Below, in pieces: positions 1,122 through 28,214 of a stretch of 28,214 bases of DNA; the first letter of the stretch is position 1, and the number at the start of each line of letters is the position of its first letter. This stretch comes from a virus (taxonomy: Duplodnaviria > Heunggongvirae > Uroviricota > Caudoviricetes): the IMG/VR virus record IMGVR_UViG_2657244961_000001, one strand, 5' to 3'. The notes beneath the pieces are model-generated. The model searched no databases and was not told where the DNA came from. It saw nothing but the letters and a program-made list of their open reading frames with translations. Both the position numbers and the translations under genes were made by a program.

Positions 1122-1190
1122 AAAATCCTCTCTGATTGATGTGTAAATTCAGGCGGTGTTGCAGCACCGCCTCTTTCCGGAGGTACGATC

Positions 1191-1742
1191 ATGAGTCGCA
1201 CATCCCTGATTAAATTAATCCATGTCGCCCGTCGGGAGCTACAACTCGACGATGACACTTACCGCGCTTTTCTGATGCAGAACACGGGCAAAATCAGTTG
1301 CCGCGAGCTGACGGTTACGCAACTGGAACAGGTGCTCGATGCCATGAAAGAACGCGGCTTTAAAAAGCTGAATAAACATCCACGTCGCCGCTTTAAGGAA
1401 CATGTCACGCCCCGCGAGAAGGTGTATAAAATTTGGCAGCAGATGGCAGAAGACGGTTTTATTACCGATGGCGGTGATGTGGCGCTGGATAAATATGTTC
1501 AGCGCCTGACCGCGAAACGCAACGGCGGACAGGGTGTTTCCACACTGGCGTGGTGTCACGGAGAATCGTTGCAGGTTGTGCTTGAAACCCTGAAACAGTG
1601 GCACATCCGCTGTATTCGTGAAGCCTTTTCCCGTCACGGGCTTCCGTTGCCGGTCAGTCCGTCCGGGCGTGAACTGCGCGGCTATGATGCCATGACGGCG
1701 GCTTATGCCCATGCCAGAAAGACACGGAGGATGGCACAATGA
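1191..1742 (+). CDS. gemA: GemA-like protein (Mu gp16 family)
   Basis: 183 aa, ATG preceded by GGAGG; size and position immediately upstream of mor match Mu GemA as I recall it. Confidence 0.75.
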   Translation: MSRTSLIKLIHVARRELQLDDDTYRAFLMQNTGKISCRELTVTQLEQVLDAMKERGFKKLNKHPRRRFKEHVTPREKVYKIWQQMAEDGFITDGGDVALDKYVQRLTAKRNGGQGVSTLAWCHGESLQVVLETLKQWHIRCIREAFSRHGLPLPVSPSGRELRGYDAMTAAYAHARKTRRMAQ

Positions 1743-2128
1743 CGGAAGATTTATTTGGTGATTTGCAGGATGACACCATCCTGGCACATCTTGACAATCC
1801 CGCCGAGGATACGTCACGCTTTCCGGCACTGCTGGCGGAGCTGAACGATTTACTACGCGGGGAATTGTCCCGGCTGGGTGTTGATCCGGCCCATTCACTG
1901 GAGATTGTTGTGGCTATCTGTAAGCATCTGGGCGGCGGTCAGGTCTACATTCCACGCGGTCAGGTTCTGGACTCGCTGATTCGGGATTTGCGTATCTGGA
2001 ATGATTTTAACGGTCGCAACGTCAGCGAACTGACCACCCGTTATGGTGTCACTTTCAATACGGTTTACAAGGCCATTCGCCGGATGCGACGGCTGAAATA
2101 CCGCCAGTACCAGCCCTCACTTCTGTAA
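1739..2128 (+). CDS. mor: Mor-like transcription activator (Mor/C family)
   Basis: 129 aa, start overlaps gemA stop (ATGA); sequence MTEDLFGDLQDD... recognised as Mor-like; followed by a terminator hairpin. Confidence 0.75.
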   Translation: MTEDLFGDLQDDTILAHLDNPAEDTSRFPALLAELNDLLRGELSRLGVDPAHSLEIVVAICKHLGGGQVYIPRGQVLDSLIRDLRIWNDFNGRNVSELTTRYGVTFNTVYKAIRRMRRLKYRQYQPSLL

Positions 2129-2133
2129 ACAGT

Positions 2134-2158
2134 AAAGCCGGTTAATCCGGCTTTTTTT
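2134..2158 (+). terminator. rho-independent terminator after mor (AGCCGG stem, 5-nt loop, T7 tract)
   Basis: aaAGCCGGttaatCCGGCTttttttt read directly from the sequence. Confidence 0.55.
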
Positions 2159-2205
2159 ACGTCCTCAATATCCTGTGATGAATAACCGTACCGGGGGAAA
2201 TCATC
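2159..2205 (+). promoter_or_regulatory. candidate Mor-dependent middle promoter region (position inferred, no motif verified)
   Basis: Only non-coding stretch between the mor terminator and the first middle-operon ORF; distance from here to the hairpin after C is about 1.2 kb. Confidence 0.2.
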
Positions 2206-2424
2206 ATGGGTAAAGGCTGGAATGCATCCTTTCATCTTGGCAGACGTGAGCGGCTGCGTCAGGAGGTTTTGCACCGTGTCGCCGGTGGGCCACGGCCTGC
2301 GCCCCGCGACTATACCGGTCATGATGGCACCCACGGCAGTTATTACATGAAAGGCTGGCGGTCAGTTGATATGCCGGAAATTCTTCATCATTGCCTGCTT
2401 TACAGGGAGAAACATTATGTCTGA
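2206..2424 (+). CDS. hypothetical small basic protein (72 aa), first ORF between mor and C
   Basis: ATG preceded by GGGGGA; stop overlaps the start of the next ORF (ATGTCTGA), suggesting coupling. Confidence 0.3.
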   Translation: MGKGWNASFHLGRRERLRQEVLHRVAGGPRPAPRDYTGHDGTHGSYYMKGWRSVDMPEILHHCLLYREKHYV

Positions 2425-2779
2425 GCGTTCTGCTCATCAGTGGCCTGATTTTTTATCGGTGGTGTTACTGGCGCTGTTATTGTGGATAAGTCTGTTTTGT
2501 GGCTGGCGCGCGCTGATGTTTTGCTGTGCCTCGGTTTTCAGTGTTGCTTTATGTGTTGCCGGTGATTGTCTGGATGCGCTGATAATGAGCTGCCGGGTGC
2601 CTGAACATTTTGCCCGGTTCGTCTGGCCTCTGACCTGGCTGGGGAGTCTGTCCGGGCTGGGATTAGCCGTGATGGCAACGTCTCAACTGAAAACGGGTCC
2701 TGAGCATGTCATCTGGGCGCTGGCCGGATTGCTGACGTTCTGGCTCTCCTTTCGTTTTCGTGCTCGTCTGTTCGGGTAA
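2417..2779 (+). CDS. small polytopic inner-membrane protein (about 120 aa, about 4 predicted TM helices), function unknown
   Basis: ATG at 2417 preceded by AGGGAGAAA; hydrophobic stretches FLSVVLLALLLWISLF, LMFCCASVFSVALCVAG, FVWPLTWLGSLSGLGLAVMA, VIWALAGLLTFWLSF. Confidence 0.45.
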   Translation: MSERSAHQWPDFLSVVLLALLLWISLFCGWRALMFCCASVFSVALCVAGDCLDALIMSCRVPEHFARFVWPLTWLGSLSGLGLAVMATSQLKTGPEHVIWALAGLLTFWLSFRFRARLFG

Positions 2780-2788
2780 AGGGGCACC

Positions 2789-2908
2789 ATGTACAGAAAA
2801 TTCAGTGATGAATGTTTCGGGCCGTCCACGCTGATTAGTGCGATAAAAGTGATTGCCCTTGTGGTTCTGATAACCATCAGTGCCGTGGTGTATCTTTCTG
2901 TCTGTTAA
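2789..2908 (+). CDS. 39-aa single-TM peptide (not in the supplied ORF track)
   Basis: ATG 2789 preceded by AAAGGGG; translation MYRKFSDECFGPSTLISAIKVIALVVLITISAVVYLSVC, stop TAA 2906-2908. Confidence 0.3.
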   Translation: MYRKFSDECFGPSTLISAIKVIALVVLITISAVVYLSVC

Positions 2909-2920
2909 CCGGGGGAAAAT

Positions 2921-3343
2921 ATGCAGCATGATTTATTTGAACACGATCCGGCAATTCGCCAGTTAATCGGACACATTGATAACATCCCGGCCCCGGAACT
3001 GGAATCACGCTGGCCCCGTTCGGTGGTTGATCTGATTGATGTTCTGGAAAACGAACTGAAACGCCAGAACGTCAGCAATCCCCGTGAGCTTGCCCGTAAA
3101 CAGGCCGTTGCCCTGTCCTGTTTTCTGGGCGGGCGGCAGTTTTACATCCCCTGCGGCGATACGATCCTGACCGCGTTACGCGACGATTTGCTTTACTGCC
3201 AGTTCAATGGTCGTAACATGGAAGAACTGCGTCGCCAGTATCGCCTGTCCCAGCCGCAGATCTACCAGATTATTGCCCGCCAGAGAAAGCTGCATACACG
3301 ACGTCATCAGCCTGATCTGTTCTCACCTGAAAGCCAGAAATAA
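2921..3343 (+). CDS. C: C-like late transcription activator (Mor/C family)
   Basis: 140 aa; ATG preceded by GGGGGAAAAT; shares the C-terminal FNGRN...Y..I motif region with the Mor-like protein; sits directly upstream of the endolysin. Confidence 0.75.
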   Translation: MQHDLFEHDPAIRQLIGHIDNIPAPELESRWPRSVVDLIDVLENELKRQNVSNPRELARKQAVALSCFLGGRQFYIPCGDTILTALRDDLLYCQFNGRNMEELRRQYRLSQPQIYQIIARQRKLHTRRHQPDLFSPESQK

Positions 3344-3366
3344 CCGGCATCCTGCCGGTTATTTCC
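3342..3366 (+). terminator. hairpin overlapping the C stop codon (8-bp perfect stem AACCGGCA/TGCCGGTT, 3-nt loop), possible middle-transcript terminator
   Basis: Perfect inverted repeat at 3342-3360 followed by ATTTCC; the U tract is weak. Confidence 0.3.
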
Positions 3367-3377
3367 TGTCACCATAA

Positions 3378-3387
3378 TCCCGCACCT
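3378..3387 (+). promoter_or_regulatory. TCCCGCACCT motif, candidate late-promoter element upstream of lys
   Basis: Identical 10-mer recurs at 11229-11238 upstream of the I-like gene, at a similar distance from the start codon. Confidence 0.3.
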
Positions 3388-3434
3388 GCCATCTGATTTT
3401 TTAGACTGCCATCAGCGCATTTTTTCAGGGAAGC

Positions 3435-3953
3435 ATGATGGCGGGGATACCAAAAAAACTGAAAGCCGCACTGCTGGCGGCAACGATTGCCGGTGGCGGT
3501 GTGGGTGGTTATCAGGAAATGACCCGTCAGTCTCTGATCCATCTGGAAAATATCGCTTATATGCCTTACCGCGATATTGCCGGTGTGCTTACGGTCTGTG
3601 TGGGACATACCGGGCCGGATATCGAAATGCGCCGTTACAGCCATGCGGAGTGTATGGCTCTCCTCGACAGTGATTTAAAACCGGTTTATGCGGCAATCGA
3701 TCGTCTTGTCAGGGTGCCGCTGACGCCATATCAGAAAACGGCGCTGGCAACGTTTATTTTCAACACCGGTGTTACCGCATTCAGTAAATCAACGCTGCTG
3801 AAAAAACTCAATGCCGGTGATTACGCCGGAGCGCGTGACCAGATGGCCCGCTGGGTGTTTGCCGCAGGCCATAAATGGAAAGGACTGATGAACCGTCGCG
3901 AAGTGGAAATGGCTATCTGGAATATCAGGGGGGCGGATGACCTTCGCCAGTAA
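3435..3953 (+). CDS. lys: endolysin, T4-lysozyme-like with N-terminal signal-anchor-release (SAR) domain
   Basis: 172 aa; Gly/Ala-rich weakly hydrophobic N-terminus LKAALLAATIAGGGVGG followed by an E...D...T arrangement (LENIAYMPYRDIAGVLT). Confidence 0.85.
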   Translation: MMAGIPKKLKAALLAATIAGGGVGGYQEMTRQSLIHLENIAYMPYRDIAGVLTVCVGHTGPDIEMRRYSHAECMALLDSDLKPVYAAIDRLVRVPLTPYQKTALATFIFNTGVTAFSKSTLLKKLNAGDYAGARDQMARWVFAAGHKWKGLMNRREVEMAIWNIRGADDLRQ

Positions 3954-4323
3954 AAGTTTACTGCTGGCAGCCGTGTTTGCCGCCGTTCTGTCCGGGGTGT
4001 TGTGGCACAGGCTGGACAGCACCCGCCACGATAACCAGACACTGCGCCGTGAATTACAGACGGAGCAACAGGCCCGCAACACGGCTGAATGGTTGTTACA
4101 CAGTCAGGAACAGACGATGCAGGTATTTTCTGCTATCCGTGCCGCAAATCGTGCCGCGCGGCTGGCAGACGAGACAGAACATCATGATGCAAAACAAAAA
4201 ATTACAACCGCCATTACCGGTGACAATTGCAGCACTCGTCCTGTGCCTGCCGTTGCTGCTGACAGGTTGCGGGAACTCGAAAAACGCACCCGTGCCATCG
4301 GTGGTGATCCTGCCCGAAACTGA
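3937..4323 (+). CDS. inner-membrane spanin (Rz-like)
   Basis: Starts inside the endolysin stop region; N-terminal TM LLLAAVFAAVLSGVLW then charged coiled-coil-like region; contains an embedded out-of-frame lipoprotein ORF. Confidence 0.6.
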   Translation: MTFASKSLLLAAVFAAVLSGVLWHRLDSTRHDNQTLRRELQTEQQARNTAEWLLHSQEQTMQVFSAIRAANRAARLADETEHHDAKQKITTAITGDNCSTRPVPAVAADRLRELEKRTRAIGGDPARN

Positions 4324-5273: not shown

Positions 5274-5849
5274 ATGGACAGGAAAACACGGGGCCGGGCT
5301 TCAAAAGTGGATTTACTGCCGGAAAACGTACGTAAAACGCTGCATGAAATGCTGCGTGATAAAGCGATCCCACAGGCCCGCATTCTGGAAGAAATTAACG
5401 CACTGATTGAAGACGCTGGCCTGCCGGATGAGATGAAACTCTCCCGTTCCGGTCTGAACCGTTACGCGACGAACGTCGAGCAGGTAGGCCATAACCTGCG
5501 ACAGATGCGTGAAATGACGTCAGCACTGACCGCAGAACTTGGCGACAAGCCAATGGGAGAAACCACAAAGCTGATTCTGGAAATGGCCCGCAGCCAGCTT
5601 TTTAAGGCCATGATGCGGCAAATCGAAAACCCGGAATCTGACGTGGATATTGACCTGCTGAAAAATGCCATGCTGGCGGCACAGCGTCTGGAATCCACGG
5701 CAATGTCCAGCCACCGGCGCGAGAAAGAAATCCGCCAGGCGTTCGCAGAAGAAGCGGCAAACGCTGTCAGTGAAGAACTGCGCGGGCAGGATGGCATCAG
5801 CGAAGAACTGGAGCAGCGCATCCGTGATGTACTGCTGGGGAAAGCGTAG
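5274..5849 (+). CDS. putative terminase small subunit-like protein
   Basis: ATG at 5274 preceded by AGGAGG (5264-5269); acidic, helical protein directly upstream of the large terminase; function assigned by position only. Confidence 0.55.
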   Translation: MDRKTRGRASKVDLLPENVRKTLHEMLRDKAIPQARILEEINALIEDAGLPDEMKLSRSGLNRYATNVEQVGHNLRQMREMTSALTAELGDKPMGETTKLILEMARSQLFKAMMRQIENPESDVDIDLLKNAMLAAQRLESTAMSSHRREKEIRQAFAEEAANAVSEELRGQDGISEELEQRIRDVLLGKA

Positions 5850-5859
5850 GCGTTACGTT

Positions 5860-6030
5860 ATGAAAAATAATTACAAAGCACAGCTAATCAGTGCCCATAA
5901 AAAAGCCTTCAGGATTGCAACATTGTCTGATGTCCGGTTGATACACCAGATTCGGGATGTGCTTGTTCAGGCCATGGCTTCAGGCAATTCATGGCATACC
6001 ACCATAAAGCAACTAAGGATGTTGTCCTGA
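5860..6030 (+). CDS. hypothetical 56-aa ORF between the terminase genes
   Basis: Internal ATG of six-frame ORF 5665..6030; weak ribosome-binding site. Confidence 0.25.
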   Translation: MKNNYKAQLISAHKKAFRIATLSDVRLIHQIRDVLVQAMASGNSWHTTIKQLRMLS

Positions 6031-6123
6031 GGAGATGAAAATGGCGGATGCCCGGCGACGGCAGGTCAGGTGATCGGTTGTTCCTGGATTCGCCGGTAAC
6101 GTTTTACACCGGATTTTTCACCC

Positions 6124-7779
6124 ATGAGCACCAGAGAAAGCAAACTTAAAGCCCTTCATGCGCCCCGCAAAATCGACCTGCGTAAGGAAGCCGAACTGCT
6201 GGGCGTGAATATCGTGACCGATATCGGGGAAGCACAGCCCCGCAATGAACCGGTTTTTCTGGGCTATCAGCGCCGCTGGTTTGAGGATGAAAGCCAGATT
6301 TGTATTGCTGAAAAATCCCGTCGTACCGGTCTGACATGGGCCGAAGCGGGCCGCAATGTCATGACGGCAGCAAAGCCGCGCCGCCGTGGCGGTCGCAACG
6401 TCTTTTATGTGGGTTCCCGTCAGGAAATGGCGCTGGAATACATCGCCGCCTGTGCCCTGTTTGCCCGCGCCTTTAACCAGCTGGCAAAGGCTGACGTCTG
6501 GGAGCAGACCTTCTGGGACAGCGACAAAAAAGAAGAAATCCTCACTTATATGATCCGTTTCCCTAACAGCGGATTTAAGGTGCAGGCGCTGTCAAGCCGT
6601 CCGTCTAACCTGCGTGGTTTGCAGGGGGACGTGGTGATTGATGAGGCGGCATTTCATGAAGCCCTGGACGAACTCCTGAAAGCGGCCTTTGCGCTCACCA
6701 TGTGGGGTGCCCGCGTGCGGATCATATCGACACATAACGGCGTCGATAACCTGTTTAACCAGTACATTCAGGATGCGCGCGAGGGGCGCAAGGATTACAG
6801 CGTTCACCGTATCACGCTGGATGATGCCATCGCTGACGGGTTGTACCGACGTATCTGTTACGTCACGAATCAGCCGTGGTCGCCGGAAGCGGAAAAAGCC
6901 TGGCGTGATGGCCTGTACCGGAATGCGCCGAATAAAGAGAGTGCCGACGAGGAATACGGCTGCATTCCTAAAAAATCCGGGGGCGCTTATCTGTCACGCG
7001 TGCTGATTGAAGCCGCCATGACGCCAGCGCGAGATATCCCGATTCTGCGTTTTGAAGCCCCGGACGATTTTGAATCGCTGACACCACAAATGCGCCACGA
7101 CATCGTTCAGGACTGGTGTGAACAGGAGCTGCTCCCGTTGCTCGATGCGCTGTCGCCGCTCAATAAACACGTACTGGGCGAAGACTTTGCACGCCGTGGC
7201 GACCTGACGGTGTTTGTGCCGCTTGCCATCACGCCTGACTTACGCAAACGCGAATGTTTCCGCGTGGAGCTGCGTAATGTGACCTATGACCAGCAGCGAC
7301 AAATCCTTTTATTCATTCTGTCCCGTTTGCCCCGTTTTACCGGCGCTGCATTTGATGCCACCGGTAACGGCGGTTATCTGGCAGAGGCCGCCCGTCTGAT
7401 TTATGGCCCGGAGATGATCGACTGCATCAGTCTGACCCCCGCCTGGTATCAGGAGTGGATGCCAAAACTGAAAGGCGAGTTTGAAGCGCAGAACATCACG
7501 ATTGCCCGGCATCAGACCACACTTGATGACCTGCTTCATATCAAGGTGGATAAGGGGATCCCGCAGATTGACAAGGGGCGCACAAAAGATGAAGGCGGTA
7601 AAGGCCGACGACATGGCGACTTTGCCGTAGCGCTCTGTATGGCTGTCAGGGCGTCTTATATGAATGGTTTTGTTATCGACGAGGACAGCATACAGGCGCT
7701 GCCACCACGCCACCGTGGTGATGATGTTGATAACGATGATTTTGATGATTATCACCAGTTTGAACGAGGGGGCTGGTAA
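6124..7779 (+). CDS. terminase large subunit
   Basis: 551 aa; size, position and Mu-like context; no obvious Shine-Dalgarno upstream. Confidence 0.9.
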   Translation: MSTRESKLKALHAPRKIDLRKEAELLGVNIVTDIGEAQPRNEPVFLGYQRRWFEDESQICIAEKSRRTGLTWAEAGRNVMTAAKPRRRGGRNVFYVGSRQEMALEYIAACALFARAFNQLAKADVWEQTFWDSDKKEEILTYMIRFPNSGFKVQALSSRPSNLRGLQGDVVIDEAAFHEALDELLKAAFALTMWGARVRIISTHNGVDNLFNQYIQDAREGRKDYSVHRITLDDAIADGLYRRICYVTNQPWSPEAEKAWRDGLYRNAPNKESADEEYGCIPKKSGGAYLSRVLIEAAMTPARDIPILRFEAPDDFESLTPQMRHDIVQDWCEQELLPLLDALSPLNKHVLGEDFARRGDLTVFVPLAITPDLRKRECFRVELRNVTYDQQRQILLFILSRLPRFTGAAFDATGNGGYLAEAARLIYGPEMIDCISLTPAWYQEWMPKLKGEFEAQNITIARHQTTLDDLLHIKVDKGIPQIDKGRTKDEGGKGRRHGDFAVALCMAVRASYMNGFVIDEDSIQALPPRHRGDDVDNDDFDDYHQFERGGW

Positions 7780-9317
7780 TGGGCCGTATTCTGGATATTT
7801 CCGGGCAGCCGTTTGATTTTGACGATGAAATGCAGACCCGCAGCGATGAGCTGGCAATGGTCATGAAGCGCACGCAGGAGCATCCTTCCAGTGGTGTGAC
7901 GCCGAACCGGGCCGCGCAGATGCTGCGTGATGCCGAACGCGGTGATCTGACAGCACAGGCTGACCTGGCCTTTGATATGGAAGAAAAGGACACCCACCTT
8001 TTTTCCGAACTGAGCAAGCGCCGCCTTGCCATTCAGGCGCTGGAATGGCGCATCGCTCCGGCACGTGATGCCAGCGCACAGGAGAAAAAAGACGCTGACA
8101 TGCTGAATGAATATCTGCATGATGCGGCGTGGTTTGAAGATGCCCTGTTTGATGCCGGTGATGCCATTCTCAAGGGCTATTCCATGCAGGAGATTGAATG
8201 GGGCTGGCTGGGGAAAATGCGCGTGCCGGTAGTGCTGCATCATCGCGATCCGGCGCTGTTCTGCGCGAACCCCGACAATCTGAACGAATTACGCCTGCGT
8301 GATGCGTCTTATCACGGGCTGGAGCTGCAACCGTTCGGCTGGTTTATGCACCGGGCCAAATCCCGCACCGGGTACGTTGGCACCAATGGCCTTGTGCGCA
8401 CGCTTATCTGGCCTTTTATTTTTAAAAACTATTCCGTGCGTGATTTTGCAGAGTTTCTGGAAATTTACGGACTCCCCATGCGCGTCGGTAAATATCCGAC
8501 CGGCTCCACGAACCGTGAGAAAGCCACGCTGATGCAGGCCGTGATGGATATCGGGCGACGTGCCGGTGGCATTATTCCGATGGGGATGACGCTGGATTTT
8601 CAGAGCGCCGCAGATGGTCAGTCAGACCCCTTTATGGCGATGATTGGCTGGGCAGAAAAAGCGATTTCAAAAGCCATTCTGGGCGGCACCCTGACCACAG
8701 AGGCTGGCGATAAAGGTGCACGGTCGCTGGGTGAAGTGCATGATGAGGTTCGCCGGGAAATCCGTAACGCGGATGTGGGCCAGCTTGCCCGCAGTATTAA
8801 CCGTGACCTGATTTATCCCCTGCTGGCACTGAACAGTGACAGCACCATTGATATTAACCGCCTGCCGGGCATTGTATTTGATACCAGTGAAGCGGGTGAT
8901 ATTACGGCACTGTCTGACGCCATTCCGAAACTGGCGGCGGGAATGCGTATTCCGGTCTCCTGGATACAGGAAAAACTCCATATTCCACAGCCGGTCGGTG
9001 ACGAAGCCGTGTTTACTGCTCAACCGGTTGTCCCGGATAACGGTCCGCAGAAAGAAGCCGCATTATCCGCTGATGATATCCCGCAGGAGGATGATATCGA
9101 CCGGATGGGCGTTTCACCGGAAGACTGGCAGCGTTCGGTTGATCCACTGCTGAAACCCGTCATTCTTTCTGTGCTGAAAGATGGCCCGGAAGCCGCCATG
9201 AACAAAGCCGCTTCATTATATCCGCAGATGGATGATGCAGAACTTATCGACATGCTGACCCGTGCCATTTTTGTTGCCGATATATGGGGGCGTCTGGATG
9301 CCGCAGCAGACCATTGA
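7779..9317 (+). CDS. portal protein (Mu gp29-like)
   Basis: 512 aa; TAATG overlap with terminase; GAGGGGG upstream. Confidence 0.85.
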   Translation: MGRILDISGQPFDFDDEMQTRSDELAMVMKRTQEHPSSGVTPNRAAQMLRDAERGDLTAQADLAFDMEEKDTHLFSELSKRRLAIQALEWRIAPARDASAQEKKDADMLNEYLHDAAWFEDALFDAGDAILKGYSMQEIEWGWLGKMRVPVVLHHRDPALFCANPDNLNELRLRDASYHGLELQPFGWFMHRAKSRTGYVGTNGLVRTLIWPFIFKNYSVRDFAEFLEIYGLPMRVGKYPTGSTNREKATLMQAVMDIGRRAGGIIPMGMTLDFQSAADGQSDPFMAMIGWAEKAISKAILGGTLTTEAGDKGARSLGEVHDEVRREIRNADVGQLARSINRDLIYPLLALNSDSTIDINRLPGIVFDTSEAGDITALSDAIPKLAAGMRIPVSWIQEKLHIPQPVGDEAVFTAQPVVPDNGPQKEAALSADDIPQEDDIDRMGVSPEDWQRSVDPLLKPVILSVLKDGPEAAMNKAASLYPQMDDAELIDMLTRAIFVADIWGRLDAAADH

Positions 9318-10617
9318 TCTGGCGTATGCCGCACGCCTCCCGCCAAAGGAGGCTGTCGCGTATTTCCGCGCCAAAGGCTACAACATCACCTGGAACTGGT
9401 ACGAACAACTGGCAGACGCGCACGCCCGCGCCTTTACCGTTGCCAAAGCCACCCGGATGGATGTACTGACCACAATCCGTGAGGAAGTGGAGCGGGCTGT
9501 CAGTGAAGGCATCACCCGTGAGGAATTTACCCGCACACTGGCCCCCCGGCTGCAAAAACTCGGATGGTGGGGAAAACAAATCATCGTGGATGCAGACGGA
9601 AACGCAAAGGTAATCGAGCTGGGCAGTCCGCGTCGTCTGGCAACCATTTATAACGTCAATACCCGTACGGCGTACGGGGCGGGACGTTATGCGCAGATGA
9701 TGAATACCGCCGATTTGTACCCGTACTGGCAGTACGTTGCCGTTATGGATGGCAGAACACGCCCGGAACATGCGCGGCTGCATAATATGGTTTTCCGGTA
9801 TGACGACATTTTCTGGCAAACGCATTACCCGCCCAATGGCTGGAACTGCCGCTGTCGCGTCCGGGCGCTGTCTGCGGCCCGCATGAAAGAACTGGGGCTA
9901 CAGGTCAGTTATGGTGCGTCATTCATGAATACCCGCGAAGTGGATGCCGGTACGGATGAAAGCACCGGAGAGATTTTCCGCACATCGTCAACCACGTTTG
10001 ACAACGGTCGGGTAAAAATGACGCCGGATGTGGGCTGGTCATATAACCCCGGTTCGGCGGCATTTGGTACGGATCAGGCACTGATTCGAAAACTGGTGGA
10101 AGTTCGTGACGCGCAGCTGCGTGAGCAGGTTGTTCAGACGCTGAATAACAGCCGGGAGCGTCAGCTTGCTTTTTCCCTCTGGCTTAAACGTCTGGCGAAA
10201 TCACGCCGGGCCGGACATGAGGTCCGTGCGCTGGGGTTTATGACGGAAGCCGTGGCGGAGGCCGTATATCAGCGCACCGGGAATATGCCAGCCCGTCTGC
10301 TTGTGATGAACGGAAAAAGTCTGGCGACCACTGCTGATGCCGCCCTGAAACCGGAGGATTTACAGCGTCTGCCGTCACTGATGGCAAAACCACAGGCGGT
10401 ATTGTGGGACAGGGAGAACCACCAGTTGCTGTATGTTGTGGCAACCCGCGACGGCACTGCAAAAGTTGTGGTCAGAACATCGCAGGCTGTCAGCAAACAG
10501 AATGACCGGGCGGATGTGCTGGTCAGTATCAGCCGCGTATCTGCACAGTCGCTTGAAGCCGCGATTGCTGACGGGATGATTGACGTACTGGAGGGGTATG
10601 TGGAGGTGAATAAGTGA
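9298..10617 (+). CDS. F: head morphogenesis protein, Mu F-like
   Basis: Contains WQYVAVMDGRTRPEHARLHNMVFRYDD and WNCRCRV, recognised as Mu F-like; ATG 9298 chosen, GTG 9262 is an alternative. Confidence 0.8.
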   Translation: MPQQTIDLAYAARLPPKEAVAYFRAKGYNITWNWYEQLADAHARAFTVAKATRMDVLTTIREEVERAVSEGITREEFTRTLAPRLQKLGWWGKQIIVDADGNAKVIELGSPRRLATIYNVNTRTAYGAGRYAQMMNTADLYPYWQYVAVMDGRTRPEHARLHNMVFRYDDIFWQTHYPPNGWNCRCRVRALSAARMKELGLQVSYGASFMNTREVDAGTDESTGEIFRTSSTTFDNGRVKMTPDVGWSYNPGSAAFGTDQALIRKLVEVRDAQLREQVVQTLNNSRERQLAFSLWLKRLAKSRRAGHEVRALGFMTEAVAEAVYQRTGNMPARLLVMNGKSLATTADAALKPEDLQRLPSLMAKPQAVLWDRENHQLLYVVATRDGTAKVVVRTSQAVSKQNDRADVLVSISRVSAQSLEAAIADGMIDVLEGYVEVNK

Positions 10618-11084
10618 GTCTTGATATGAACGTTGCCGTGGATGTGCGACGTATTCAGCTTGCGCTGGATGAACTGGGAACCGTCACACGTGACCGCGTC
10701 ATTCCCCGTGTGATGGCTGCGGCGCTGCTGTCATCCACGGAACAGGCATTTGAACGGCAGGCAGACCCGGATACAGGGAAAGGCTGGGAAGCGTGGAGCG
10801 ATTCGTGGCTGGCATGGCGTCAGGATCATGGTTTTGTTCCGGGCAGTATCCTTACCCTGCATGGCGATCTGGCACGCAGCATTACCACCGATTATGGACA
10901 GGATTATGCCCTGATTGGCTCGCCAAAAATTTATGCTGCCATTCATCAGTGGGGCGGTACACCCGATATGGCACCCCGCCCGGCAGGCGTTCCTGCGCGT
11001 CCTTATATGGGGCTGGATAAGACCGGGGAACAGGAAATTTTTGATGCCATCAGAAAACGCGTCAGCACCGCTCTGAGGCAATAA
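10614..11084 (+). CDS. G: virion morphogenesis protein, Mu G-like
   Basis: 156 aa; GTG start at 10614 after GGAGGTG, ATG at 10626 is an alternative; position after F. Confidence 0.7.
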   Translation: MSLDMNVAVDVRRIQLALDELGTVTRDRVIPRVMAAALLSSTEQAFERQADPDTGKGWEAWSDSWLAWRQDHGFVPGSILTLHGDLARSITTDYGQDYALIGSPKIYAAIHQWGGTPDMAPRPAGVPARPYMGLDKTGEQEIFDAIRKRVSTALRQ

Positions 11085-11131
11085 ACAGAATCAGGCATAA
11101 AATCAGCCGCACAGATTTTTTAAAACGCGCC

Positions 11132-11178
11132 ACGGGATTTTTAAACCGGTATTTAACGGTGTATGAATCCCGTTTTAT
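11132..11178 (+). terminator. inverted repeat ACGGGATT(26 nt)AATCCCGT followed by TTTTAT, possible terminator or regulatory structure after the F/G genes
   Basis: 8-bp perfect inverted repeat read from the sequence; loop is long for a simple terminator. Confidence 0.25.
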
Positions 11179-11228
11179 CTTCCTTCCACTTTCTTTCTCC
11201 AGTACTCAAATAGCATAACCCCAGATTT

Positions 11229-11238
11229 TCCCGCACCT
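11229..11238 (+). promoter_or_regulatory. TCCCGCACCT motif, candidate late-promoter element upstream of the I-like gene
   Basis: Same 10-mer as 3378-3387; lies 43 bp upstream of the ATG at 11281. Confidence 0.3.
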
Positions 11239-11280
11239 CCCGCAAACTGACTGCTCACAAACCATGATGAGCAGCAGGAC

Positions 11281-12366
11281 ATGAAAAAACACGCGATTGG
11301 CATTGCCGCACTGAGTGCGCTGTCCATTGACGATGACGGCTGGTGCCAGCTATTGCCTGCCGGTCATTTCAGTGCCCGTGATGGTCGTCCGTTTGATGTA
11401 ACAGGCGGTCAGGGGTGGTTCATCGACGGTGAGATTGCCGGGCGTCTGGTTGAAGGCGTTCGCGCACTCAACCAGGACGTGCTGATTGATTACGAGCATA
11501 ACCAGCTACGTAAGGACAAAGGATTACCCCCGGAACAACTTGTCGCGGCTGGCTGGTTTAACGCCGATGAAATGCAGTGGCGTGAAGGTGAAGGATTATT
11601 TATCCACCCACGCTGGACGGCGGCGGCACAGCAGCGCATCGATGACGGCGAATTTGGTTATCTCTCTGCGGTTTTTCCGTATGACACCGCCACCGGTGCG
11701 GTGCTGCAAATCCGCCTTGCTGCGCTGACCAATGACCCCGGTGCCACCGGCATGAAAAAGCTGACCGCACTGGCGGCAGACCTTCCCGACATCCTTCAAC
11801 AGGAGAACAAACCCATGAATGAAACGCTGCGCAAGCTGCTTGCGCGTCTTGGGGTGACGGTCCCCGAAAATGCAGACATCACCGATGAACAGGCCAGCGC
11901 GGCCCTGAGTGCGCTTGATGCGCTCGAAACAGATGCCGGAAAAGTGGCGTCGTTATCCGCCGAACTGGAAAAGGCACAGAAAGCCGCCGTTGACCTGACG
12001 AAATACGTCCCGGTGGAAAGCTACAACGCCCTGCGTGATGAACTGGCACAGGCGACTGCACAAAGCGCCACAGCCAGCCTGAGCGCCGTTCTGGACAAGG
12101 CGGAACAGGAAGGCCGCATTTTCAAAAGCGAACGCACTTACCTGGAACAGCTTGGCGGTCAGATTGGCGTGGCGGCACTGTCGGCACAGCTTGAGAAAAA
12201 ACAGCCCATCGCTGCGTTATCTGCCATGCAGACCACCACAGCGAAAATTCCGTCGCAGGAAAAACCGGCGGTGGCGGTGCTGTCTGCTGATGAACAGGCA
12301 GCAGTGAAGGCGCTCGGCATTACAGAGGCTGAGTATCTGAAAATGAAACAGGAACAAGAAAAATGA
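11281..12366 (+). CDS. I: head maturation protease / scaffold protein, Mu I-like
   Basis: 361 aa; N-terminal half protease-like, C-terminal half Ala/Glu/Lys-rich coiled-coil-like; position before major capsid gene. Confidence 0.85.
   Translation: MKKHAIGIAALSALSIDDDGWCQLLPAGHFSARDGRPFDVTGGQGWFIDGEIAGRLVEGVRALNQDVLIDYEHNQLRKDKGLPPEQLVAAGWFNADEMQWREGEGLFIHPRWTAAAQQRIDDGEFGYLSAVFPYDTATGAVLQIRLAALTNDPGATGMKKLTALAADLPDILQQENKPMNETLRKLLARLGVTVPENADITDEQASAALSALDALETDAGKVASLSAELEKAQKAAVDLTKYVPVESYNALRDELAQATAQSATASLSAVLDKAEQEGRIFKSERTYLEQLGGQIGVAALSAQLEKKQPIAALSAMQTTTAKIPSQEKPAVAVLSADEQAAVKALGITEAEYLKMKQEQEK
11815..12366 (+). CDS. possible nested in-frame scaffold protein (Mu Z-like) from an internal start
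   Basis: In-frame ATG at 11815 preceded by AGGAG (11801-11805); downstream product is the helical Ala-rich C-terminal domain. Confidence 0.35.
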   Translation: MNETLRKLLARLGVTVPENADITDEQASAALSALDALETDAGKVASLSAELEKAQKAAVDLTKYVPVESYNALRDELAQATAQSATASLSAVLDKAEQEGRIFKSERTYLEQLGGQIGVAALSAQLEKKQPIAALSAMQTTTAKIPSQEKPAVAVLSADEQAAVKALGITEAEYLKMKQEQEK

Positions 12367-24147: not shown

Positions 24148-24680
24148 CACCCTGGCAGACTGCCTTTCTGCAATTACTGCCGTCAGGGCTTGCCTGGAAT
24201 AAAAGCCCCGACAGCAAATTATCTGCGCTGGCGCAGGCCATCAGTGACGTGATTGCCACTGCGGCGGATGATGCGCGGCAAATGCTGCGGGAGCGTTTCC
24301 CTTCCACATCCCGCTGGTATCTGGGTGAGTGGGAATCATTTCTGGGGTTGCCGGACTGTACCAGCGAAAACGGCACCCTGTCAGAACGCCAGCGGGCTGC
24401 CGCAAATAAAATGCGTATGACCGGCAATCTGAGTAGGCGCTTTTATGAATGGCTGGCTGCGCAGTACGGTTTTACCGTCAGGCTGACGGATTCCACAGAA
24501 GGCCAGTGGGTTACGCAGGTCAATATTTACGGTATTAAAAATTATCGCAACGCAACGGTGCTGGATAATGTTCTGACGCCGTTACGTGTTTATGAATCGG
24601 GTGCGCTGGAATGTTTACTGGAGAAATATAAACCCGCGCATCAGATTTATAAATTTGTTTACCATGACGGAGATAACTAA
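24138..24680 (+). CDS. tail/baseplate protein (Mu gp48-like)
   Basis: 180 aa; directly precedes the tail-fibre gene. Confidence 0.75.
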   Translation: MAVTPWQTAFLQLLPSGLAWNKSPDSKLSALAQAISDVIATAADDARQMLRERFPSTSRWYLGEWESFLGLPDCTSENGTLSERQRAAANKMRMTGNLSRRFYEWLAAQYGFTVRLTDSTEGQWVTQVNIYGIKNYRNATVLDNVLTPLRVYESGALECLLEKYKPAHQIYKFVYHDGDN

Positions 24681-26089
24681 TGTTTTATATTGATAACGAC
24701 AGCGGCGTAACCGTCATGCCGCCCGTATCCGCCCAGCGTAGTGCTATCGTTCGCTGGTTTTCAGAAGGTGACGGGAATAATGTTATCACATGGCCCGGCA
24801 TGGACTGGTTTAATATTGTGCAGGCGGAGTTATTAAACACGCTGGAAGAAGCCGGTATTCAACCGGATAAAACAAAATTAAACCAGCTTGCACTGTCCAT
24901 TAAAGCCATTATGAGCAATAACGCGCTGCTGATAAAAAATAACCTCAGCGAAATTAAAATTGCCGGGGCATCAGCACAGCGTACAGCACGTGAAAATCTG
25001 GATATCTATGATGCCAGCCTGAACAAAAAAGGACTCGTTCAGCTAACCAGTGCCACTGACAGCCCCAGTGAAACGCTGGCAGCCACCGCAAAAGCGGTGA
25101 AAATTGCGATGGATAATGCCAATGCCCGTCTGGCAAAAGACCGGAACGGAGCAGATATTCCCAATAAGCCGCTGTTTATCCAAAACCTCGGTTTGCAGGA
25201 AACAGTAAACAAGGCTGGTAACGCCGTTCAGCGTTCCGGCGATAAAATGACCGGAGAGCTGAAAATTGGCACGGTGAATGCGCTGCGAATTTTCAATGAT
25301 GCCTTCGGTCTTATTTTCCGTCGTTCAGAAGATTTTCTTCATTTCATTCCGACGGCTGAAGGACAAGGCGAAAACGGTGATATCGGCCCATTAAGGCCAT
25401 TCGCTATAAATCTGAGAACAGGTGCTATATCTGTCAGCCACGGGGCCAAAATTGAAGGAGGTCTAGCTATTGGTGCTACTGATAACGCACTGGGTGAAAA
25501 CTCCATTGTTCTGGGAGATAACGACACCGGATTTAGGCAAGATGGAGATGGTATTATTAGCTTCTATTCAAATGGTTCGCGCATCGGACATATTGATGAG
25601 TTAGGATTACATATTTATAAAGATATTGAATCTAATGGCGGCAATTTTAGATTAAAAGGTAATTACCGCCACCACATTACATTCGCCAACGAAGACGGAA
25701 GTATTCGTATGTTTTTGTGGAAAGATAAAGATGGTGATGGTGTTCATATTAATAATGGTTCAAGCGGTGGCGGTGATTTCGTTTTTAAAACAGATGGGGG
25801 ATTTGCGCTGGGAAGTGGTGCGCAAGTTGCGTCTAATGGCGATATTTATGGTTCAGTGTGGGAAAACAACTGGTTAAGCACATGGCTGCATAATCATGTC
25901 GTTCGGGATATTCGTCTTGGCAGCATTGAATATAAAAACGTATGGCGCGACTCCGGCTTTGGCGATGCGTCAGGTTATGTTTTAACAGCCGCAATTAACA
26001 GCAATGCGGATGATATTGTCGACACTGTTGCCAGAAGGCCAATTCAGAAATTGATTGGGGGAATATGGTATAACGTGGGGAGTGTTTAA
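24680..26089 (+). CDS. S: tail fibre protein S (constant N-terminal part up to about 25190, variable C-terminal part after the gix-like site)
   Basis: 469 aa; GGAG upstream; C-terminus similar to the C-terminus of the inverted S' cassette. Confidence 0.85.
25176..25201. other. gix-like 26-bp site-specific recombination (DNA invertase crossover) site inside S
   Basis: TTATCCAAAACC-TC-GGTTTGCAGGAA; differs at one position from the Mu gix sequence as I recall it (TTATCCAAAACCTCGGTTTACAGGAA). Confidence 0.6.
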
Positions 26090-26090
26090 G

Positions 26091-26618
26091 ATGATGCACC
26101 TGAAAAATATTAAGGCCGGGAATCCGAAAACACCGGAACAATACCAGCTAACTAAAAAAGCGGGCGTGGTATGGCTCTTTTGTGAAGATGGCAAAAACTG
26201 GTATGAGGAACAAAAGAATTTTCAGCCAGACACCATAAAAATTGCTTACGATGAGAACAACATCATCGTTGCTGTCAGTAAAGACGTTTCAACTATTAAT
26301 CCTGAAGGGCTAAGCATAGTTGAAGTTCCTGATATTACGGCAAATCGTCGCGCAGACAATAACGGAAAATGGATGTTTCTGGATGGTAAAGTAGTAAAGA
26401 GGGAATATACAGAACAGGAACTGCAACAACAGGCCGAATCACAAAAGGCCGCGTTACTTTCCGAAGCGGAAAGCGTTATTCAGCCACTGGAGCGCGCTGT
26501 CAGGCTGAATATGGCAACAGATGAGGAACGTACACGACTGGAAGCCTGGGAACGCTACAGCGTTCTGGTCAGCCGCGTGGATACGGCAAAGCCAGAATGG
26601 CCACAAAAACCAGAGTAA
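26091..26618 (+). CDS. U: tail fibre assembly protein U
   Basis: ATG one nt after S stop; N-terminus [30 protein letters not shown]...[10 protein letters not shown] nearly identical to the N-terminus of the inverted U' copy. Confidence 0.85.
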
Positions 26619-26622
26619 AATT

Positions 26623-26642
26623 AAGGCCCGATAGCGGGCCTT
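26623..26642. terminator. bidirectional rho-independent terminator between convergent U and U'
   Basis: AAGGCCCG-atag-CGGGCCTT perfect 8-bp stem, flanked by A/T-rich sequence on both sides. Confidence 0.6.
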
Positions 26643-26645
26643 CTC

Positions 26646-27179
26646 TCATTCTGGTTGTTCGGGAAACGTTACTGGCAGGCTGGAGGTGTCTGTAGATTCG
26701 ACTTTCTGCGCATAGAGCATCCACTCGATTAATTTTTGTTTATTCTCGTCTGAAATGATACCCAGCCGTAGCTGTGAGTCCCATAGCTGGGTTTTATCCC
26801 TGACAAGTTGCAACAGGCTTTGTTTTTCATTCTCTGCCTGCTGCCTCTGTTCTTCCTCGGTATAAGTTCGCTTTATCACTACGCCATCTTTGAACATCCA
26901 TTTACCCGAAATGTCAGCACGGCGATTTGCAGTAATGTCAGCAACCTCAACAACGCTTAAACCTTCTGGATTTATTGTAGATACGTCTTTATCTATAGCC
27001 ACAATAATTCCATCTGATGTGTAAGCAATTTTTATAGTGTCATCCTGAAAGTTCTTTTGTTCCTCATACCAGTTTTTATCGTCCTCAGAATACAACCAGA
27101 CAACACCGAATTGTCGCGTCAATTCATATTGTTCAACAGTTTTTGGATTTCCGGATCTGATGTTTTTCAAATGCTGCAT
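26646..27179 (-). CDS. tail fibre assembly protein U' (alternative cassette, inverted)
   Basis: 177 aa on - strand; conserved N-terminus with U, divergent C-terminus. Confidence 0.8.
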
Positions 27180-27181
27180 AA

Positions 27182-28081
27182 TTAAATACTTCCCGCGTTA
27201 TACCAAGTGCCATTGATACAATACTGCACAGGTCTTGCCTGAGTTGTATCAATAAGTTCGTCCTTATTTGAGTTGATTGAGGCAGTAACAACATAACCAG
27301 ATTTATCGTTCCAACCAGGACCATTCCATGTTTGCACTGACGATTTTGTACCTAATCGAATACCTGTAATAAATCGTGAATTACATTCTGCTTTGGTATA
27401 TGCACCAACATCTCCCGCTGATGGCTTACGTGTTGTAGTGTAAAATTCCGACCAGTCGGCTTCAAAGCCATAACCGTCACGCGCAGAACGATAATAAATA
27501 CCGCCGTTCTTATAATTCACGCGGAACTGAACAGCCGGACAACTACCAGCTCCCATATAAAAATGAAGAATTAACGTAGATGCTCCACCAATATTTGCGT
27601 TATAAACCCCGCTAATTGAGTTCCATCCAACAGCTTTGTCATTTCCAACTGTGCTTCCTGTCTGCCCTAAAGCAAATGCAGGTTGTTGATTTTTCGTGTT
27701 GTAGTCTCGTCGCCAGCCAGGAGCGTAAGCATCACCATGATTGATATAAGTGAATTGAGCGTTAGTAATTCCGCCACCGCTGGACGTGCTCGGCGTGGTA
27801 ACGCGTATGGTCATTGCGCCGCGAGTGCCAATAACTTCCACCACAGCACCTGCAAGACAAATATTCCCGCAACCTGTATCTGTAATGACCTTATTATTTG
27901 TATAAGCCCATGAGCCTTTGCACATCCAGTAAGGATGGTTAAATGCTCCCTGACTCTCCAGCCACGAAATAAATTGCGCGGTTGTCCAGACCTGACTATC
28001 GCCACCAATATTCAGCCATGCGCTATATGCGCGGCAGGGGCACTGTTGCAAAGTTAGCGATGAGGCAGCCTTTTGTCTTAT
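27182..28081 (-). CDS. alternative tail fibre C-terminal cassette S' (open frame with no ATG or ribosome-binding site of its own)
   Basis: Frame open on - strand from 28081 to the stop at 27182-27184; C-terminus ...[33 protein letters not shown] parallels S ...[33 protein letters not shown]; the track's start at 28051 is a TTG. Confidence 0.6.
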
Positions 28082-28090
28082 TCAAAGGCC

Positions 28091-28213
28091 TTACATTTCA
28101 AAAACTCTGCTTACCAGGCGCATTTCGCCCAGGGGATCACCATAATAAAATGCTGAGGCCTGGCCTTTGCGTAGTGCACGCATCACCTCAATACCTTTGA
28201 TGGTGGCGTAAGC
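28091..28213 (-). CDS. 3' end of an unidentified leftward ORF (partial; runs off the window)
   Basis: Minus-strand frame open from the window edge to TAA at 28091-28093; translation ...AYATIKGIEVMRALRKGQASAFYYGDPLGEMRLVSRVFEM; same frame as S', separated from it by TAA and TGA. Confidence 0.2.
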   Translation of the reverse strand, partial: AYATIKGIEVMRALRKGQASAFYYGDPLGEMRLVSRVFEM

Positions 28214-28214
28214 C

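Follow-up and report, generated by a model that had tools for sequence, protein, structure and literature searches.

Does the tail-fibre locus at the right-hand end of this viral contig encode an invertible host-range switch, or the remains of one? The G segment of phage Mu is a textbook invertase switch, and a first, sequence-only reading had proposed a Gin/Hin-family host-range switch at the present locus. As to family, that proposal is right and was even put too cautiously, since the locus is homologous to the Mu G segment and carries an authentic gixL crossover site, but the contig, with one gix site, no invertase and an IS26 end, does not show a working switch. From our comparisons we conclude, with a probability of about 92%, that this is a Mu-type G segment in the G(+) orientation in which, on this contig, IS26 stands in place of the start of Sv', of gixR and of all that would follow to the right, leaving what is, as seen here, a disabled one-way remnant.

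The window, that is, the whole stretch of DNA analysed, is one entire contig of 28,214 bp (JRRG01000057.1) from the draft assembly GCA_000826805.1. A literature search on this assembly accession found no publications, and an exact protein look-up with S returned the source contig only. The window is collinear with phage Mu 7347–34923 and about 98% identical to it up to the start of S. Positions 1–24722 align with Mu 7347–31500 at 95.6–98.2% identity, interrupted at just two short stretches that have no match in Mu (319–610 and 5840–6123), and homology extends past Mu 31500, across the G segment, as far as Mu 34923. The late structural genes have the lengths of their Mu counterparts or differ by no more than a residue, with the exception of gene F, for which the open reading frame was listed from an earlier GTG start. 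Such a collinear match of high identity is that of a Muvirus prophage, and the whole contig is, to judge from the alignment, a Mu-type prophage with its own G segment and not an analogue. The left end of the contig lies at Mu 7347, which indicates that the prophage was fragmented in the assembly. The G segment region comprises the following features.

24680–26089, plus strand: S, a single uninterrupted open reading frame of 469 aa.
24680–25175, plus strand: Sc, the constant 5' part of S, outside the invertible segment and assigned by its identity to Mu Sc.
25176–25201, plus strand: gixL, the left Gin-type crossover site, with the 26-mer TTATCCAAAACCTCGGTTTGCAGGAA.
25202–26089, plus strand: Sv, the variable, receptor-binding portion of S, continuing the reading frame of Sc.
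26091–26618, plus strand: U, the tail-fibre assembly chaperone for S, 175 aa (Pfam Caudo_TAP, E = 1.9e-36).
26623–26642, no strand assigned: G+C-rich hairpin between the convergent U and U' (-25.4 kcal/mol, z = -6.3).
26646–27179, minus strand: U', the alternative assembly chaperone, 177 aa (Pfam Caudo_TAP, E = 1.6e-35).
27182–28038, minus strand: Sv' remnant, the alternative variable fibre part, consisting of the 3' 285 codons; the first 34 codons are absent.
28039–28214, minus strand: IS26 end, identical to an annotated IS26 copy at 176 of 176 positions.

The layout read from the sequence, with S and U followed by an inverted U'/S' pair, is borne out by the open reading frame table as well as by the genes called in the source record. 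Two Sv/U sets thus face each other in opposite orientation, Sv–U on the plus strand and U'–Sv' on the minus strand, the latter lacking the beginning of Sv'. Gene order, orientation and the position of the crossover within S are the same as in the Mu G segment. The differences from Mu are a distinct Sv allele and, on this contig, IS26 in place of gixR, gin and the first 34 codons of Sv'.

The fibre gene is divided into a constant and a variable part, with the crossover site lying inside the reading frame, where gixL supplies codons 166–174. The constant part is nearly that of Mu (99.6% nucleotide and 99.4% amino-acid identity between the two Sc sequences) and includes a Phage_fiber_2 repeat (Pfam) at residues 113–153. 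The variable part, which carries a gp37_trimer domain (Pfam), is only 36% identical to Mu Sv and has 300 residues versus 335 in Mu; it is 98.7% identical to Sv of the Escherichia coli MIN10 prophage. The fibre tip predicted to be expressed is accordingly an already known alternative allele. The reading frame continues unbroken from Sc across gixL into Sv, which makes the orientation one of the G(+) type, and the same Sc–Sv configuration occurs in Mu, MIN10 and the viral contigs L002, L010 and L013. The opposite, G(-) configuration is found in L004 and L005, in which Sc is fused to a homologue of Sv'. The intact 488-aa Sc–Sv' fusion of L005 shows the product that inversion would yield in this prophage if its Sv' were whole.

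The crossover site had been described as lying inside S, one mismatch from the Mu gix site, and the Mu genome record confirms this. Both gixL and gixR of Mu read TTATCCAAAACCTCGGTTTACAGGAA, and the present gixL, at the same position inside S, differs from it by the single substitution A20G (25/26 identity). Its half-sites, TTATCCAAAACC and GGTTTGCAGGAA, flank a central TC at 25188–25189; in the Gin/Hin systems, crossover falls at the central dinucleotide. The 26-mer TTATCCAAAACCTCGGTTTGCAGGAA is the sole match in the window at up to three mismatches, and none is expected from shuffled sequences. When viral contigs were scanned for the gix site, twelve stretches of DNA matched. The exact A20G variant also occurs in four viral contigs (L007, L011, L012 and L014), and in two of these, L012 and L014, an inverted partner site lies at a distance of about 3 kb with gin just beyond. 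Since these two contigs pair the variant with an inverted gix and gin, A20G is a natural allele found in complete switches.

The right-hand half of the switch is missing from the contig. A second copy of gix was found in the window neither at up to three nor at up to five mismatches, and no two inverted sites bounding a segment of about 3 kb are present on the contig; the place where gixR would be expected, about 28127–28152, is taken up by IS26. A tblastn search of the window with the Gin proteins of Mu and MIN10 found no Gin-like coding sequence; no E value was lower than 4. A serine invertase gene (gin) next to the segment is likewise lacking on the contig, which ends before the position that gin occupies in the relatives, and com and mom, which together with gin follow gixR in those relatives, are also absent from it. 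An inverted gix about 3 kb away, with gin about 55 bp past it, is present in Mu, E. coli MIN10 and the viral contigs L004, L006, L010, L012, L013 and L014. The contig has neither the second gix nor an invertase because IS26 cuts Sv' 114 bp before the outer end of gixR.

This cut is sharply defined. None of the alignments with phage or E. coli prophage sequences extends past 28038, and the very next base opens the terminal inverted repeat GGCACTGTTGCAAA of IS26 (14 bp, 28039–28052). The last 40 codons of the transposase follow at 28094–28213 on the minus strand, with a translation that ends in GDPLGEMRLVSRVFEM and a stop codon. This IS26 end thus contains both the 14-bp repeat GGCACTGTTGCAAA and Tnp26 coding sequence, and repeat and transposase C-terminus are identical to those of IS26 (IS6 family). 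Positions 28039–28214 match thousands of plasmid records annotated as IS26. The reference IS26 copy spans 820 bp between its inverted repeats, and 176 of these 820 bp are on the contig, which terminates within the element, 176 bp in. The right boundary of 28081 proposed earlier for the switch region extends 43 bp into IS26; the element had gone unnoticed in the sequence-only reading, which took the cut S' frame for a whole one. In Mu and MIN10 alike, 114 bp separate the equivalent of the breakpoint at 28038/28039 from the outer end of gixR, and these missing 114 bp correspond to the first 34 codons of Sv' plus gixR.

IS26 insertions are commonplace in Enterobacteriaceae. An exact scan of species-representative genomes gave 0 matches to the phage–IS26 junction, and no record spanning it was found among all complete E. 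coli genomes. The contig might be an assembly chimera at the IS26 junction, with a G segment that is really intact; the ends of draft contigs are error-prone, and the junction occurs on this one contig only. Yet phage sequence gives way to IS26 precisely where the 14-bp repeat starts, which is typical of transposition and improbable for a random mis-join, and we consider a chimera very improbable.

The IS26 junction also accounts for the form of the alternative fibre gene. The Sv' remnant is 93.3% identical in amino-acid sequence to Sv' of Mu and MIN10 over 284 residues and contains a gp37_C domain (Pfam). Full Sv' has 318 codons in Mu and E. coli MIN10, of which 284–285 are left here: the remnant starts at CRAYSAW, where intact Sv' reads GLQETVNQASGALQ...NIGA-CRAYSAW. 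As Sv' lacks its 5' end, a full-length S' is impossible whatever lies past IS26. In the sequence-only reading, the length of the S' frame had been equated with the distance from the crossover site to the stop codon of S. This agreement is an artefact, since the frame was listed from a TTG (28051) within the IS26 repeat (28039–28052). We reject the match in length between the listed 289-aa open reading frame of S' and Sv as meaningful, because the frame is cut by IS26 and the near-equality is accidental. For annotation, the S' open reading frame as called is an IS26-truncated pseudogene with its apparent start inside IS26. The similar C-terminal tail that S and S' were said to share does exist, but it is limited to about 66 residues. 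An outward hybrid promoter carried by IS26 and driving the Sv' remnant and U' was considered as well; it was dropped, as a consensus scan found no site.

The two chaperone genes are whole. U is 82% identical to Mu U and 98.3% identical to MIN10 U, and its true start is the ATG at 26091, the mechanically listed TTG at 26055 not being a start. U' shares 84.7% identity with Mu U'. The contrast that had been drawn between the N-termini and C-termini of U and U' is real, with about 73% identity over the first 120 or so residues and about 27% over the rest, but the N-termini had been called almost identical, which overstates their likeness. The hairpin at 26623–26642 is terminator-like on the minus strand and is likely a terminator common to U and U'.

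Among known elements, the closest full-length relative of the segment is that of the Mu-like prophage of E. coli O126:H45 MIN10 (NZ_CP069677.1), with 93.4% identity over 4 kb. In contrast to the present contig, the MIN10 segment is complete and free of IS26, and the prophage has intact gixR, gin, com and a gene at the position of mom; its gix sites show one or two differences, at other positions. The switch principle is common to the C segment of P1/P7, the P segment of e14 and the Hin/hix system of Salmonella (Din family), and the U, U' and Sv' genes have matches in P1, P7 and D6 at 79–84% nucleotide identity. The elements of P1/P7, e14 and Salmonella are, however, set in other phage or chromosomal backbones, whereas the backbone here is that of Mu itself.

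The enhancer bound by Fis sits inside gin. In the Mu system, Gin dimers bind two inverted gix sites and, with Fis on the enhancer, form a synaptic tetramer. This tetramer cuts the centres of the sites, rotates and religates them, so that the segment is inverted and the Sv–U pair behind Sc is swapped for Sv'–U' (see, for example, PMC3575834). By extension from Mu, Gin acting on gixL and on an inverted gixR about 3 kb away would flip the segment in an intact element; the flip would fuse Sc to Sv', bring U' into the operon and change the host range. In the prophage as found, the late transcript would run from Sc through gixL into Sv and U and would provide one complete tail fibre with its chaperone. 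With IS26 abutting Sv' at 28038/28039, no complete alternative fibre S' can be made.

How far the loss extends beyond Sv' can be read in more than one way. IS26-mediated adjacent deletion or rearrangement may have taken away gixR and gin, and possibly com, mom and the Mu right end as well; the segment would then be locked in G(+), and the prophage might not transpose or package. Replicative transposition of IS26 produces adjacent deletions and rearrangements, and the observations of one IS26 boundary only and of neither a gix partner nor gin in 28 kb are in line with such an event, as is the left end of the contig, which also stops short, at Mu 7347. On the other hand, the late genes are intact, so that any damage would be recent: their lengths are as in Mu, which suggests that the IS26 event itself was a recent one. 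We put the chance of such a frozen relic at about even.

The term disabled is also bounded by the end of the contig. With a simple insertion, gixR and gin could lie at least 820 bp further on, and the flip could continue, although S' would still be broken. The corresponding alternative is that IS26, or a larger IS26-bounded unit, simply inserted into Sv', with gixR and gin on another contig. Gin would still flip the enlarged segment, between a functional S/U pair and a fusion of Sc with 34 Sv' codons that runs into IS26. Short-read assemblies stop at repeats, and this contig ends inside IS26 in just that way, placing the far side out of view; gixL and the other G-segment genes are intact, and the remaining prophage looks undamaged. 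Set against this, no complete E. coli or species-representative genome carries the junction, which leaves no relative to compare, and we hold this alternative to be possible, at odds somewhat below even. It makes a specific prediction, namely that the other end of IS26 is joined to GCGGCAGG-CACCAATATTTTTGG...gixR...gin, where GCGGCAGG would be the 8-bp target duplication. The predicted order is …TTTGCAACAGTGCC (the other IS26 end), GCGGCAGG CACCAATATTTTTGGTGAAGG…TTCCTGYAAACCGAGGTTTTRGATAA, and gin. In a further conceivable arrangement, the G segment keeps both gix sites and gin and houses IS26 or an IS26-bounded unit, for instance a resistance region; Gin would then flip insertion-sequence cargo and alternate between a functional and a truncated fibre. 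We regard this last idea as unlikely.

The G(+) segment interrupted by IS26 is, in its biology, already known: it is a commonplace instance, in damaged form, of a textbook system, and it matters little beyond correct annotation. On this contig gixL is an orphan site, and the prophage can express one fibre type only. Its Sv allele corresponds to one from an E. coli prophage and not to Mu Sv, so that a host range other than the one of classical Mu G(+) is probable.

The expressed Sv, the variable part of the tail fibre S (25202-26089), has 36% identity to Mu Sv, whereas its identity to Sv of the E. coli MIN10 prophage is 98.7%. The Sv allele represents a mosaic exchange of receptor-binding tips, set in a genome of which the remainder is approximately 98% identical to Mu. 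The additional features considered here are as follows.

294-617: open reading frame for a protein of 107 aa, assigned to PHROG family 1988 (function unknown)
26623-26642: stable hairpin, flanked by U and U' in convergent orientation
28039-28052: terminal repeat of IS26
28039-28214: end of IS26, its transposase pointing at the phage; these last 176 bp of the contig lie inside the element

Because positions 319-610 of the window have no counterpart in the alignment to Mu, the open reading frame at 294-617 is an additional early-region gene relative to that phage. Megablast revealed a second stretch unmatched to Mu at 5840-6123, located where the small terminase gene has its 3' end, ahead of the large terminase gene; despite this, the small terminase is still assigned to phrog_426. 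Further downstream, the hairpin separating the assembly chaperone genes U and U' is probably a terminator common to both.

Two relatives showed particularities in the G segment region. The viral contig L008 (IMGVR_UViG_2690316161_000025) carries U-U'-gixR-gin twice, at 1125-4113 and 9245-12233, in apparently identical copies approximately 8.1 kb apart, which reflects either a true duplication or an artefact of the assembly. In the MIN10 prophage, the crossover site gixL (L002 4177-4202) has a G instead of a C at position 12, directly adjoining the central TC and unlike gixR of the same prophage, which might impair inversion there.

Position 1 of the window corresponds to Mu position 7347, within Mu gene 12 (E13), and no insertion sequence or other recognisable repeat was found at this left end. 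No visible contig contains the early region (c, A, B) or the prophage's left end. At the right end, the window stops 176 bp into IS26, so that the far end of the element and the target duplication fall outside the visible sequence. The presence of IS26 in this Mu-type prophage suggests a multidrug-resistance background of the host strain.
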